This document shows positions 33,797 through 57,646 of a stretch of 64,000 nucleotides of DNA, piece after piece. Made by a program: the position numbers and the translations under genes. The DNA is from a virus. Lineage: Duplodnaviria; Caudoviricetes. Position 1 is the first letter of the stretch; each line of letters begins with the position of its first letter. The notes under the pieces are model-generated. The model searched no databases and was not told where the DNA came from. It saw only the letters and a program-made list of their open reading frames with translations. The DNA lies in the IMG/VR virus record IMGVR_UViG_3300037484_000435, positions 481,323 to 545,322 of that record; one strand, 5' to 3'.

Positions 33797-33872
33797 TGGG
33801 CGATGGGCAAACTGGTAAAGCCGCAACTCTCTGAAAGTTGAGATATTGAAGGTTCGAAGCCTTCTCGCCCAG
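33797..33872 (+). tRNA. tRNA-Gln(CTG)
   Basis: Acceptor TGGGCGA/TCGCCCA, anticodon arm caact-ctCTGaa-agttg, T-loop ttcgaag. Confidence 0.88.
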
Positions 33873-33876
33873 CAAG

Positions 33877-33927: not shown

Positions 33928-34704
33928 ATGGAATTAACAAAAAAACAAAAAGCAGGGTGTGAGAACGGTCGAATATATCGACAAAAAGCCCTCGATCGTT
34001 ATTATGAAAATCCAAGTAGGTGTAAATTTTGTGATAAAATAATTGAGGTTCCTGTTGACAAGAAACCATCTGATATTAGAAATAAGAAATTCTGTGATTC
34101 CTCGTGTGCTGCAAAATTTAATAATCGGGGTGTAGATCGCTGGGATAAAGCACGGGCACATAAACAGCGTGTTCGAAAGACAACCGATGGCACGACGAGA
34201 AAGAATGCCTGCGAAATTTGTGGGTCAGAAATTGTAGTGGCACCTAAAAAGTTACACAAGCAATCTGGCTATTATTTCTATGATCGCCAGTATTGTGACA
34301 AGTGTTTGCCTAGCGTTCGGTCTGCGAACTCTAAAAGGGCCGCAAAAGAGCGTGCAATCAAAAATGGAAAGACATACACAATAGCAACCCAGAAAGATAC
34401 TTTCGAGGAATTGGTCAACAAAGGACTAACTAAGGGTGAACTAAAGGTATTAACGAAAGATTTTGGTTACTATGGATGGAAAGGATCGATAACCAAACAT
34501 GCTAGGAAGGTTTTTGCTGGAAGTAATCAAGATTTAAAGTGTAGAGTTTGTGGTTTTGATTTTCATGTGCATGTATGCCACATCAAAGGGGTTAAAGAAT
34601 TTACAGATGACGTTAAGATATCAGAGATAAATGATTTGAACAATTTAGTTGCTCTATGTCCAAATCATCATATAATGTTTGATAAAAACATTATAAGTAT
34701 TTGA
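33928..34704 (+). CDS. HNH homing endonuclease between two tRNA-Gln genes
   Basis: CKFC...KKFCDSSCAA N-terminal zinc motifs; C-terminal CRVCG..HVHVCHIK...NNLVALCPNHH. Confidence 0.85.
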   Translation: MELTKKQKAGCENGRIYRQKALDRYYENPSRCKFCDKIIEVPVDKKPSDIRNKKFCDSSCAAKFNNRGVDRWDKARAHKQRVRKTTDGTTRKNACEICGSEIVVAPKKLHKQSGYYFYDRQYCDKCLPSVRSANSKRAAKERAIKNGKTYTIATQKDTFEELVNKGLTKGELKVLTKDFGYYGWKGSITKHARKVFAGSNQDLKCRVCGFDFHVHVCHIKGVKEFTDDVKISEINDLNNLVALCPNHHIMFDKNIISI

Positions 34705-34706
34705 AA

Positions 34707-34789
34707 TGACAGGTACTCGAATGGTACAGAGGCCAGATTTTGAATCTGGTGCCGAAAGGTCGTAGGTTCGACCCCTACCCTGTCAGCCA
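34707..34789 (+). tRNA. tRNA-Gln(TTG) with enlarged variable region, encoded CCA
   Basis: TGACAGG/CCTGTCA-G-CCA; ccaga-ttTTGaa-tctgg; variable tgccgaaaggtc. Confidence 0.88.
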
Positions 34790-34797
34790 AAAAATAC

Positions 34798-34897
34798 GCC
34801 GTAGTTAGGTACGCGACTATGAACAAAGGTGCTACGATGCTAGCTTATGTGAACTGGAGTGATTAGTTCCGTGGTTCGAGCCCACGGTGCGGCCCCA
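34798..34897 (+). ncRNA. Degenerate tRNA-like RNA (100 nt)
   Basis: gccgta/tgcggc acceptor-like stem, ccgtgg-ttcgagc-ccacgg T arm, 3' CCA; no canonical anticodon arm. Confidence 0.5.
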
Positions 34898-34902
34898 TCT
34901 AT

Positions 34903-35077
34903 ACCATGCCCCTCGGAAGTTAGCCAAATGTTAAAATAGCTTGAAGGTCGGTCGACAGACTGGATGGTGTTCACAAGAGGTGGGACTGGGGAAACAATGA
35001 GGGACTCGACAGCTTTACTAGTAAGGGCTTAGAGGGAACTATGAGTTTCGGGGGTTCAAATCCCTCGCATGGTACCA
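34903..35077 (+). ncRNA. tRNA-like RNA A (175 nt): acceptor + T arm + CCA enclosing a large insert
   Basis: ACCATGC/GCATGGT-A-CCA; ggggg-ttcaaat-ccctc. Confidence 0.65.
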
Positions 35078-35084
35078 AAATTAT

Positions 35085-35213
35085 ACCTCGCCCCGGAATG
35101 TAGGTAACCGTTAACTTGAAGGTCTGTCGACGGACTGGAGAGCGTTTGCGGGGAAGTAGTCAGGGAAAATACAATAGCGTGTTTGCAAGGTTCGATTCCT
35201 AGCCGAGGTAACA
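35085..35213 (+). ncRNA. tRNA-like RNA B (129 nt), paralogue of A
   Basis: ACCTCG(C)/(C)CGAGGT-A-ACA; caagg-ttcgatt-cctag; shares cttgaaggtcNgtcgacRgactgga with A. Confidence 0.6.
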
Positions 35214-35226
35214 AGAAAGGAAAAAA

Positions 35227-35675
35227 ATGGAAAAAACTCAAGCCGAAGAATTTTCACAGGACATAAAAAATCTGACACAAACAGGGCTGAAGGTCCAAGA
35301 GGCCATATTTACGGAAGGGATTCTCAGAAAGTATTTTGATGCTCGGCTGGGAGACGATGAAGTAATTTTCCCTGATGGAAGTAAAGCTCTCTATACTAGC
35401 GAAAAAGAAGGGTTCAGAGCGAAATAATGGAAACAGAATTAAAACCGGGGTATTATTGGTGGAAATACAAAATTCATCCTTGGTGGTGTGGTATTATTCA
35501 GATTTACGGTGTCCCTCCCTTTTGTAAATGGGCCATCATTTGTGGTGGGAATAACTGTGGGGACCCAAGTATTGTTAGGATTGGTGAATTAGATTTTCCG
35601 ACACTTGGTAGTTCAAAAATAGAGATAGGCCCTCGTATTGAGATGCCTCCTGAAGAAAGACAGGCTAGTAGATAG
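35227..35675 (+). other. Two small hypothetical CDS (35227-35427, 35427-35675)
   Basis: RBS gaaagga; TAATG overlap. Confidence 0.6.
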
Positions 35676-39115: not shown

Positions 39116-39237
39116 ACCGAGATAGCTCAGATTCCTAAGGCATGCCGTAAAGACCCAAAGTACACGGGTTATATAAGCAAAGAGCGTTAGGCTGATAACC
39201 TAAAGGTCTGAGAGACTGGGGAACTCTCATCTCGGTA
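39116..39237 (+). tRNA. tRNA-Ile(GAT)-like gene with large D-loop insertion and aberrant T-loop
   Basis: ACCGAGA/TCTCGGT-A; TAGCTCAG...AGAGCG D stem; ttagg-ctGATaa-cctaa; tgagag-actggggaa-ctctca. Confidence 0.7.
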
Positions 39238-39244
39238 CCGCTAT

Positions 39245-39397
39245 TTACCACATCTGGGGGGCTTCAAGGAAGCGTGTTCTTTGGTGTTGTTTCTTTGAGG
39301 TAGTACTACTTAAGGAACAAGATACTTCTCTTACGGCAACGACATAAGCTGGGGGAGTTAGTGTAGCCAAGTGCTTGCTGTCCCCCAAATGTGGTGA
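39245..39397 (+). ncRNA. Unknown structured RNA (153 nt) closed by a 15-bp terminal stem
   Basis: ttaccacat-c-tggggg / ccccca-a-atgtggtga plus internal hairpins. Confidence 0.5.
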
Positions 39398-47031: not shown

Positions 47032-47865
47032 ATGACAAATTTGCCTACACTCCAAGATTTTTCCAAAGGATCAATAAGTAAAGCAGTAGTTAAAGAGGCC
47101 CTTACACACCCAATAACACTTTACCCGAGTGTTATGGCGGTACTGTGTGGTGTGGCTGGGGTGCTCTTTACATCTCCAGCGTGGTTGCTCGTCGCTGGTG
47201 GATGTTTACTAGCGAGTACTGGTGGTGCTGTGGTGAACTACTGCTTTAGATTTGACTCTTTTGGAAAACAATATTTGAACAACTTATCTCAGAGCATGCT
47301 TCAACAAAAAGACAACCTAATCAATTCCCTAAAATCTGAACTCCTTAGCTGTGAATCCATAGACTCAGACCGGAGCGGTCAAGGTCTTTCTCAATTCTCT
47401 ACCGCAAAAGAAAAGTACGCTGATGTAAAAGAGGAACTTGGGAAGAAGCTAAACAGCGGGGAATTGATGTATGGAAGATTTATGGGATCGGTCGAACAAG
47501 TATACCTTGGTATTCTGGATAACCTTCGTGAAGTAGTCGGAATTCTGCATGGGTTACCAGATGCGGAAGGAAATGAGCAAAACCTTAGAAAAGCCTTTGA
47601 CAAAACCAATGATGAGAATGAGAGACGCCAAATAGGTGCTATTCTCAAAAGGTCTGATCTACGACGGAACCAACTAAAGAAAGCGGACGCCCTTTTGGCC
47701 CGAAATGAAGAAGCTATAACCGAATTGGAATCAACAATGATTACGGTTTCTGAAATGAAGACGGAAGAACGTCTGTCAGAAGTTGATCACGAAGAATCTA
47801 TAAAACAGCTGAAAGAAATCGCACAGAGAGTTTCATCTTTGTACGAAGACAAAGACAACCTTTAA
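47032..47865 (+). CDS. Two-TM coiled-coil protein preceding telA (XpaC-like position)
   Basis: Hydrophobic hairpin near the N-terminus, helical remainder; position upstream of TelA. Confidence 0.55.
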   Translation: MTNLPTLQDFSKGSISKAVVKEALTHPITLYPSVMAVLCGVAGVLFTSPAWLLVAGGCLLASTGGAVVNYCFRFDSFGKQYLNNLSQSMLQQKDNLINSLKSELLSCESIDSDRSGQGLSQFSTAKEKYADVKEELGKKLNSGELMYGRFMGSVEQVYLGILDNLREVVGILHGLPDAEGNEQNLRKAFDKTNDENERRQIGAILKRSDLRRNQLKKADALLARNEEAITELESTMITVSEMKTEERLSEVDHEESIKQLKEIAQRVSSLYEDKDNL

Positions 47866-57462: not shown

Positions 57463-57551
57463 GCCCTCGTAGCCTAAGGGATAGGCAATAGACTCCTAAT
57501 CTATCTGGCTAACTACGCCTTATGCAGGTTCGAGTCCTGTCGAGGGCTCCA
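57463..57551 (+). tRNA. tRNA-Arg(CCT) with long variable arm, encoded CCA
   Basis: GCCCTCG/CGAGGGC-T-CCA; ataga-ctCCTaa-tctat; variable ggc-taactac-gcc. Confidence 0.87.
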
Positions 57552-57555
57552 CGAC

Positions 57556-57646
57556 GCCCACGTCGCACAATGGATAGCGCAAGAGTCTTCTAAACTCTCG
57601 GACTGAAATATCGTCCATGTAGGTTCGAGTCCTACCGTGGGTGCCA
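57556..57646 (+). tRNA. tRNA-Arg(TCT) with long variable arm, encoded CCA
   Basis: GCCCACG/CGTGGGT-G-CCA; agagt-ctTCTaa-actct; variable ggac-tgaaatatc-gtcc. Confidence 0.87.

Follow-up and report, generated by a model that had tools for sequence, protein, structure and literature searches.

The locus examined here raises the question of what two adjacent genes can be that end like tRNAs and carry in between a shared domain foreign to tRNAs. They lie in the final 64 kb of a 545,322-bp IMG/VR virus record (IMGVR_UViG_3300037484_000435), which belongs to a sediment giant phage. This whole stretch of 64,000 nt is called the window, and positions refer to it unless the genome or another contig is named. 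A first-pass annotation, made from the letters alone, had described two adjacent elements of 175 and 129 nt, and the sequence bears this out. They are separated by a gap of 7 nt and are named A and B:

34903-35077, +: element A, 175 nt, tRNA-shelled RNA (sequence, folds, T-arm scan, profile search)
35085-35213, +: element B, 129 nt, tRNA-shelled RNA, putative paralogue of A (sequence, folds, profile search)

The answer favored here, with moderate confidence and from sequence comparison, is that A and B are paralogues in a small family of tRNA-derived, non-decoding structured RNAs. In both, the shell consists of an acceptor helix stacked on a T arm, with A-CCA or A-ACA as a single-stranded tail. 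Where a tRNA has its decoding part, they carry instead a helix right after the acceptor (H2), a tiny GG/CC hairpin, and a hairpin with a self-complementary loop (H3).

Anatomy of the two elements and known RNA families

The interiors of A and B are homologous, as had been claimed, since a 25-mer, a cggaa block, and a g(g)ggaaa..caat block are common to both. In the window, the 25-mer (CTTGAAGGTCnGTCGACrGACTGGA) is present at two places only, 34940 and 35115, and 0 of 100 shuffled sequences contain it; a profile search of the remainder of the 545-kb genome does not find it either. Its two copies agree at 23 of 25 positions as compared to 73% of the aligned columns overall, the other columns being much less alike. 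The parts of element A are as follows:

34903-34909, +: acceptor 5′ strand ACCAUGC, forming 7 Watson-Crick pairs with 35067-35073
34909-34914, +: helix H2, 5′ strand, the C-tract CCCCUC, pairing with GAGG-U-GG at 34977-34983 (manual pairing, script-checked)
34915-34925, +: small GG/CC hairpin in the D-arm position, loop AAGUUAG (fold and pairing check)
34940-34964, +: conserved 25-mer, holding hairpin H3 (34946-34961) and the palindrome GUCGAC (34951-34956)
35004-35033, +: long hairpin found only in A, in the anticodon-arm position, with the 7-nt loop ACUAGUA at 35017-35023 (fold)
35035-35049, +: hairpin H5, GGAACU-AUG-AGUUUC, in the variable-arm position, immediately 5′ of the T arm (fold)
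35050-35066, +: T arm GGGGG-UUCAAAU-CCCUC, with one G-U pair (T-arm scan, pairing check)
35067-35077, +: acceptor 3′ strand GCAUGGU, discriminator A, and encoded CCA (sequence)

Those of element B are the following:

35091-35095, +: helix H2, 5′ strand CCCCG, pairing with CGGGG at 35149-35153 (centroid fold)
35094-35110, +: D-arm-like hairpin CGG-AAUGUAGGUAA-CCG, at tRNA positions 10-26 (fold)
35115-35139, +: conserved 25-mer, holding H3 (35121-35136) and the palindrome GUCGAC (35126-35131)
35167-35184, +: hairpin H5, AAAUAC-AAUAGC-GUGUUU, immediately 5′ of the T arm (fold)
35186-35202, +: T arm CAAGG-UUCGAUU-CCUAG, with an A-A mismatch and 6 pairs when G35185-C35203 is included (T-arm scan)
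35204-35213, +: acceptor 3′ strand CGAGGU, discriminator A, and ACA, CCA not being encoded (sequence)

Element A possesses the complete shell, that is, a 7-bp acceptor, a 5-bp T stem with a UUCRANY loop, the discriminator, and CCA. The 7-bp acceptor had been claimed for both elements; it stands for A, whereas in B the strands ACCUCG/CGAGGU provide six pairs followed by a C-C mismatch at pair 7. When B is set against the same shell (7-bp acceptor, 5-bp T stem, and CCA), it shows 6+6 pairs, two mismatches, and an ACA tail. Discriminator A, the T arm, and the CCA end of A or ACA end of B can all be read from the sequence as described. The reported lack of a G3-U70 pair is correct as well, pair 3:70 being C-G in A, in B, and in R1, a relative introduced below.

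The statement that a D arm and an anticodon arm are missing was too strong. A small GG/CC hairpin follows the closing helix directly in all copies, and that of B is compatible with a D stem of 3 bp with GG in the loop; A, in addition, has the hairpin with the loop ACUAGUA (35004-35033), which is without counterpart in B. Some bases have two candidate uses. Base 34909 of A serves both as the first base of H2 and in acceptor pair 7, and the outer pairs of the D-arm-like hairpin of B compete with the last pair of H2.

An exposed palindromic loop had also been proposed. The hexamer does lie within hairpin H3, but the minimum-energy folds of A and B close GUCGAC into a G-C pair and a UCGA tetraloop on a stem of 6 bp, so that exposure of the hexamer is one of two possible states. 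The mere presence of GTCGAC at this place is uninformative, because the hexamer is under-represented genome-wide (43 occurrences against 88 expected) like other palindromes. A search for antisense targets of A and B elsewhere in the genome yields chance-level 11-mers only.

Known families do not account for the pair. ARAGORN at its default setting calls neither A nor B as tRNA or tmRNA, Rfam 15 at the gathering threshold gives no match to either, and the Rfam tRNA model (RF00005) is silent over 34790-35213 at the gathering threshold and at E<=10. The proposal of a new noncoding RNA family agrees with these results. The suggested resemblance to tmRNA does not survive them: the sole Rfam match at E<=10 is that of tmRNA (RF00023) to 18 nt of the T arm of A, at 12 bits against a gathering threshold of 47, pair 3:70 is C-G, and the short open frame of A has no counterpart in B or R1. 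At a relaxed threshold ARAGORN returns inconsistent calls on A and B, and its -i option for introns gives nothing sensible.

A disrupting insert was sought by passing every single contiguous deletion that leaves 66-100 nt to ARAGORN at the default threshold. This produced 0 full-length tRNA calls for A and 0 for B, and in the control, a tRNA-Lys with a 50-nt insert, tRNA-Lys(ctt) was recovered 243 times among 888 full-length calls. Removal of about positions 9-94 turns A into a class II sequence like tRNA-Leu(tag) only at the relaxed ARAGORN threshold, and B yields nothing coherent. Neither element behaves as an intron-containing tRNA or a tmRNA fragment, two identities that the first-pass annotation had named as contrary to its own view.

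Bacterial Y RNAs were considered in the same way. The YrlA model (RF02553) finds no match at the A/B locus even at E<=10, and the motif GNCGAAN0-1G is missing, A and B having GUCGAC(A/G)G, one base off, and R1 having GUGCACGUG. The permuted tRNA-like module of Y RNAs is also absent, as the ends of A and B form the acceptor helix in the normal tRNA order. Homology to the rnaC and rnaD genes of phage T4 was looked for by local alignment, which stays at chance against shuffles (p about 0.05-0.1), and with an nhmmer profile of A, B, and R1, which misses the T4 locus; a likeness to T4 RNAD (AAGUCGUCGGACUGAUGGU) was discarded as chance level. Overall, A and B are rated as lying outside every described RNA family, and their kind, that of tRNA-mimicking phage small RNAs, is not rated as categorically new.

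Relatives of the pair and compared structure

Homologues, whose lack would have counted against a family, have been found in related giant phages. A 141-aa protein encoded 1.3 kb upstream served as the lead to long contigs of such phages. It is 57% identical in the L071-L074 lineage, where R1, an RNA of 187 nt (L071:11274-11460), occupies the syntenic place, with three tRNA-Gln genes upstream of it, and can be aligned to A and B along about 100 nt. A profile of A, B, and R1 finds exactly those three in the 545-kb genome and all loci examined. Among public contigs aligned to the locus, short ones from three further metagenomes, of sediment or freshwater, hold near-identical copies. Another copy (X2 record 3), B-like but diverged, aligns over 39 nt at the motif only, with 5 differences, and its flanks differ on both sides; it has UAG...CUG where B has its D-arm-like hairpin.

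In a further relative (X9 record 8), positions 34899-35080 are missing, which amounts to 182 nt, exactly A plus spacer, and the tRNA-like gene that precedes A (elem0, see below) is directly followed by B. The sequencing run with this A-less relative also has a contig in which B runs into an 82-aa open reading frame (ORF), a 66-aa ORF being absent (window 35227-35426). B is closer than A to the copies from other phages.

Blastn of the locus against 50,697 phage records returned no match, and neither tRNAs nor a copy are present on four IMG/VR contigs whose terminase is 50-61% identical. The neighboring nadE and iron-permease genes led to no useful relatives, and homologues of the 82-aa neighbor protein were found in one JGI sample only. 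The family is small and rare, and so far it has been seen only in this clade of giant phages.

The comparison set consists of three full sequences (A, B, and R1) and one fragment; MAFFT alignments put the acceptor and H5 strands of these in the wrong register. Pairs A1-U, C2-G, and C3-G of the closing helix do not vary among A, B, and R1, and acceptor pairs 4-5 change from A-U and U-A in A to U-A and C-G in B. In the T stem, two G-C pairs of A are C-G and A-U in B, and B and R1 agree in a stem of 6 pairs, the second of which is mismatched.

Hairpin H3 of A and B is composed of G-U, G-C, U-A, C-G, a noncanonical or wobble position (G.A in A, U.G in B), and G-C around UCGA. That of R1 is composed of G-U, G-C, A-U, C-G, G-U, U-G, and G-C around UGCA. 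The third pair is hence swapped on both sides, U-A in A and B becoming A-U in R1, and the basal G-U wobble is kept in all three within the conserved base AAGG...CUGR; this swap and the kept wobble favor RNA pairing over a DNA palindrome. The loop hexamer is GUCGAC in A and B but GUGCAC in R1, self-complementary in both forms. The persistence of a palindromic hexamer across lineages fits dimerization weakly.

In H2, the C-tract right after the closing helix pairs with the conserved block CGGGGA(A/U)GUA. The core CCCC/GGGG is common to A, B, and R1, the partial copy has UCUCU/AGGGA instead, and the extensions covary as UC/GA in A, G/C in B, and AG/CU in R1. When RNAalifold is given the MAFFT alignment, it returns the closing helix, the T arm, and some of H3, but it pairs the C-tract in an alternative helix, so that H2 is to be taken as a candidate only. 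The region from H2 to the T arm is variable: B has a single hairpin there, A has two, and R1 has a long one. Taken together, the comparison supports an RNA structure for the motif hairpin and the CCCC/GGGG helix. As regards the covariation anticipated for the pair, compensatory changes do occur in the acceptor, the T stem, the motif hairpin, and a further helix, within a set of three sequences and a fragment that is too small for statistics.

The surrounding RNA genes

Elements A and B belong to a run of RNA genes, all on the + strand and in head-to-tail order with tRNAs. The neighboring features are the following:

33797-33873, +: tRNA-Gln(CUG), a member of the run
33928-34704, +: HNH endonuclease gene between two tRNA-Gln genes
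34707-34789, +: tRNA-Gln(UUG), 83 nt, with a long variable arm (ARAGORN; Rfam tRNA 53.8 bits)
34797-34897, +: elem0, a 101-nt non-canonical tRNA-like gene (T-arm scan; ARAGORN at relaxed threshold only)

The phage genome has 40 tRNA genes in groups arranged by amino acid, and the cluster spans the ends of the record. The tRNA-Gln(UUG) is the canonical tRNA at the head of the part that holds elem0, A, and B, in which the spacers are of 5-7 nt and A/U-rich. Element B is followed by the 66-aa ORF, which has its own Shine-Dalgarno sequence. A consensus scan for promoters and terminators around A and B finds none above the shuffle background, and on neither strand do the two elements overlap an ORF of more than 61 aa.

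The gene elem0 combines a 6-bp acceptor and the T arm CGUGG-UUCGAGC-CCACG with discriminator C, and its CCA is encoded. It also has a long variable-arm hairpin and, in place of the anticodon loop, a central hairpin with the 6-nt loop CGAUGC. It is kept in relatives (X2 record 2, X9 record 8), once behind a different tRNA. No significant similarity to the interiors of A or B was detected, and elem0 as the origin of the 3′ half of A was rejected because the similarity is not significant.

The same phage is heavily equipped for biology of this kind, with several genes for RNA handling in addition to its 40 tRNAs. These are Ro60 (TROVE domain; genome 67310-68026, +), the RNA ligase RtcB (genome 473977-475053, -), and a PolyA_pol/CCA-type nucleotidyltransferase (genome 480894-481271, -), the last lying just upstream of the window. 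Two weak YrlA-like matches (RF02553, 38-39 bits, below the Rfam threshold) occur at 65.65 and 66.2 kb, just upstream of the Ro60 gene. The distance from the locus to the Ro60 gene is ~450 kb along the record as written and ~94 kb with its ends joined. The genome also contains a canonical tRNA-Leu(UAG).

Other unusual RNA genes are found in this genome. Two odd RNAs at window 39116-39237 and 39245-39397 start with ACC, end with GGU, and are each preceded by U, like A and B. The former is similar to tRNA-Ile(GAU), with a D-loop insert of ~50 nt, the loop ACUGGGGAA instead of a T loop, and the sequence GACUGGGGAA shared with A; the latter, 153 nt in length, has a long closing helix. The U at position -1 was dropped as an RNase P argument, given that only 15/40 tRNAs of the phage carry U there. 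Class I tRNAs with long variable arms, 83-91 nt in length, include Gln-UUG, Arg-CCU, Arg-UCU, His, Trp, Pro, and Gly-UCC (in the window, for example, 34707-34789, 57463-57551, and 57556-57646).

A 65-nt mini tRNA-like gene at genome 34088-34152 (L035:14288-14353) has a 7-bp acceptor and a T arm with 33 nt between them and no anticodon arm. It was tried as a relative of A, with which it shares GGGGAAACAAT, and was rejected since the family profile misses it. A 58-nt element closely follows a small membrane-protein ORF at genome 1223-1280. Its acceptor has 7 positions, one of them mismatched, and it also has a T arm and a hairpin whose 7-nt loop, GUCAUGA, contains a CAU anticodon; it has the look of a D-armless tRNA-like gene. 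ARAGORN also reports a 518-nt "tmRNA" with the tag ASSPGYEAKLTWWRHAGNRVP, of doubtful size and tag, on two contigs (G002 215104-215621 and G001 47198-47715) that are tRNA-less and have a terminase 61% identical to that of the phage.

Competing explanations, proposed mechanism, and nearest known systems

A number of results weigh against a conserved family of structured RNAs. A and B fold with energies that do not improve on those of shuffled sequences (z -0.9 and +0.5), and the C-tract has a rival partner, a second G-rich tract, with which it can pair instead of forming H2. B is mismatched at acceptor pair 7 and in the T stem, and the closing helix of R1 has only 4 pairs (ACCU/GGGU), with which a GCCCC/GGGGU pairing competes; the tRNA shell is thus not uniformly well kept. 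The covariation is drawn from only three full sequences and one fragment. The family is absent from the other related lineages L076-L078 and from scans of IMG/VR, JGI metagenome contigs, and GTDB genomes with exact and loose motif patterns, whose matches are of chance kind and inside coding DNA; it would seem, from these absences, to be dispensable. The sole contig from an RNA library at the locus (run X3) covers tRNA-Gln only and comes from another phage, and it consequently says nothing about the expression of A and B either way.

In L076 and L077, and in its 3′ part in L078 (L078:1160-1205), a different RNA of 164 nt follows tRNA-Gln (L076:11849-12012). This RNA has a 9-bp GGUCCUUGG/CCAAGGACC helix and a folding z-score of -4.7, and the first bases of the L076 type also follow tRNA-Gln in the metatranscriptome contig (X3).

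Some of these points are what would be expected of decaying tRNA pseudogenes, born by tandem duplication in a large, loosely packed genome and without function. The mismatches of B, the 4-bp closing helix of R1, the unremarkable folding energies, the loss of A in one close relative, the lack of the whole family in other related lineages, and the many further odd tRNA-like pieces of the genome all suit decay. Against it, the 25-mer is far better kept than the rest of the alignment, and R1, from a phage whose neighbor protein is only 57% identical, still aligns over ~100 nt with H2 and H3 kept by compensatory changes. Furthermore, no single deletion restores a tRNA, which indicates that the insert is not a recent disruption. 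Decay is for these reasons considered unlikely. We give the same low standing to the idea that dimerization is the point of the pair, the hexamer loops kissing to form A-A, B-B, or A-B dimers of tRNA mimics as at a retroviral site. The hexamer is palindromic in 3/3 full copies in spite of the change from GUCGAC to GUGCAC, and the position that closes the loop varies (G.A in A, U.G in B and R1). Yet a palindrome is retained by chance in ~1/5 of centre changes and there is one independent change only, the minimum-energy fold closes the hexamer into a G-C pair and a 4-nt loop, and palindromic hexamers are common by chance, at ~1 per 64 positions.

It appears quite improbable that A, at least, functions as a tRNA, namely a highly aberrant class II tRNA of the tRNA-Leu(UAG) type, with a giant D-arm insertion and charged for translation. 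Its discriminator is A73, the loop ACUAGUA stands in the anticodon position before a variable-arm-like hairpin, relaxed ARAGORN calls A minus ~9-94 as tRNA-Leu(tag), and many tRNAs of the phage have extra arms. However, the loop of A has C33 and U37 rather than U33 and a purine, and B lacks such an arm though it shares the conserved domain (R1 has a long hairpin there, at most a candidate match to that of A). Moreover, no deletion gives a tRNA at the default threshold at which the inserted tRNA-Lys control is recovered, and the canonical tRNA-Leu(UAG) is already present in the genome.

Still more improbable is a second kind of partner RNA, Y-RNA-like, for the phage's own Ro60. The phage does have the Ro60 gene with two weak YrlA-like matches just upstream, elsewhere in the genome, and the H3 pairs GGUC/GACU presumably recur in the metazoan Ro-binding helix, which we count in its favor. 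Y RNAs are also tRNA mimics that RNase P can cleave and that can receive CCA (PMC4201824). Conversely, the YrlA model is silent at the locus at E<=10 but scores 38 bits at two other genome sites, GNCGAAN0-1G is missing from GUCGAC(A/G)G in A and B and from GUGCACGUG in R1, the tRNA order is unpermuted, and the Ro60 gene is far from the locus in either layout of the record. Hardly credible is a DNA-level element (an operator, a homing-endonuclease target, or a recombination site) or a tmRNA-like decoy of SmpB. In favor of these, GTCNGTCGACNGAC comes close to a perfect DNA palindrome, there is an HNH endonuclease gene 200 nt upstream, and the Rfam tmRNA model does align to the T arm. On the other side, the basal G-U pair of H3 and the compensatory changes fit RNA pairing and not DNA symmetry, the homology spans ~100 nt and not one site, and the tmRNA match is of 12 bits over 18 nt, with C-G at 3:70 and no tmRNA found by ARAGORN.

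The reading of A and B as tRNA-derived, non-decoding RNAs suggests a sequence of events. They would be co-transcribed with the neighboring genes, as no promoter or terminator of their own was found, and then excised and finished by the tRNA machinery, that is, by host RNase P and 3′ trimming, with CCA added by a host or phage enzyme. Recognition of the tRNA shell by processing enzymes would free the RNAs from the polycistronic transcript and stabilize them. Constraint is strongest on the conserved domain, made up of hairpin H3, helix H2, the small hairpin, and the flanking blocks, and this domain is hence probably the working part. By analogy, it probably binds a partner or itself. It may bind a protein that handles tRNA or RNA damage and act as a mimic, sponge, or scaffold; since the phage encodes Ro60, RtcB, and a PolyA_pol/CCA-type enzyme, this is the most economical guess.

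An alternative role of the domain would be pairing with a second copy via the palindromic loop, and such self-pairing, suggested by one covariation event, is a possible addition to the binding of a partner. A combined version is rather doubtful, being slightly less probable than decay or dimerization as such. In it, the shell serves only for processing and stability, H3 loops join two RNAs, and the dimer is a bivalent mimic that sequesters or bridges a tRNA-handling protein. The candidate targets of such a mimic may be a host anticodon nuclease or the phage's own repair set of Ro60, RtcB, and the CCA enzyme.

Among known systems, the YrlA Y RNAs and the tRNA-like domain of tmRNA come closest by principle, although their defining features, when tested, are not found in A and B. 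In terms of form, the HIV-1 dimerization initiation site (DIS) is a kissing loop with a 6-nt self-complementary loop sequence flanked by unpaired bases; of the two hexamers common in the HIV-1 DIS, one is GUGCAC, as in R1. The resemblance of A, B, and R1 to it is of form only, the RNAs being unrelated. YrlA Y RNAs (RF02553) mimic tRNAs, occur also in phages, and are in some cases cut by RNase P and given CCA (Chen et al. 2014, PMC4201824). In these RNAs the T arm precedes the D arm in a permuted order, the ends form a Ro-binding stem, and the motif GNCGAAN0-1G is present (PMC4201824), whereas A and B have the normal tRNA order, free acceptor ends, no such motif, and no RF02553 match.

In the tRNA-like domain of tmRNA, too, an acceptor helix and a T arm are present and the anticodon arm is lacking; its large replacement domain is closed by a helix that begins immediately behind the acceptor strand. 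A and B differ from it by C-G instead of G3:U70, by the lack of a tag frame common to A, B, and R1, and by their far smaller size. With class II tRNAs (Leu, Ser, and Tyr) the pair shares A73 and the T arm, and A also has, in the anticodon position, a 7-nt hairpin loop that contains UAG and, behind it, a variable-arm-like hairpin. Unlike class II tRNAs, however, A and B are not recognized by the models, B has no anticodon-type arm, the loop of A is without U33 and purine 37, and ~70 nt of a conserved foreign domain occupy the D-arm region.

Giant phages carry large sets of tRNA and RNA-repair genes, the logic of which is debated, and extra stable RNAs, T4 RNAC and RNAD, have been known in phage tRNA clusters since the 1970s. 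These two are the closest to A and B by arrangement, an analogy that does not imply homology. RNAC (species 1, 139 nt) and RNAD (species 2, 119 nt) are likewise in tandem, a few nt apart, and end a tRNA cluster on the tRNA strand, just as A and B are tandem 100-200-nt non-tRNA RNA genes that end a phage tRNA run on the same strand. The T4 cluster also has a homing endonuclease gene, as the A/B locus has its HNH gene. RNAC carries the consensus T arm CCGGG-UUCGAAU-CCCGG, RNAD is without a T arm, and the H2/H3 domain with its palindromic loop is not present in T4. The roles of RNAC and RNAD are still unknown (PMC3014915, PMC9697503). Elements A and B would represent a second, unrelated pair of tRNA-cluster RNAs, and they show that a class of tRNA-derived genes in such genomes escapes standard scans with tRNA and Rfam models. 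They would offer a concrete and testable handle on the tRNA and RNA-repair question in giant phages, with a clear conserved domain, a homologue in another giant phage, and a phage genome that encodes Ro60, RtcB, and a CCA-type enzyme and has weak YrlA-like matches.

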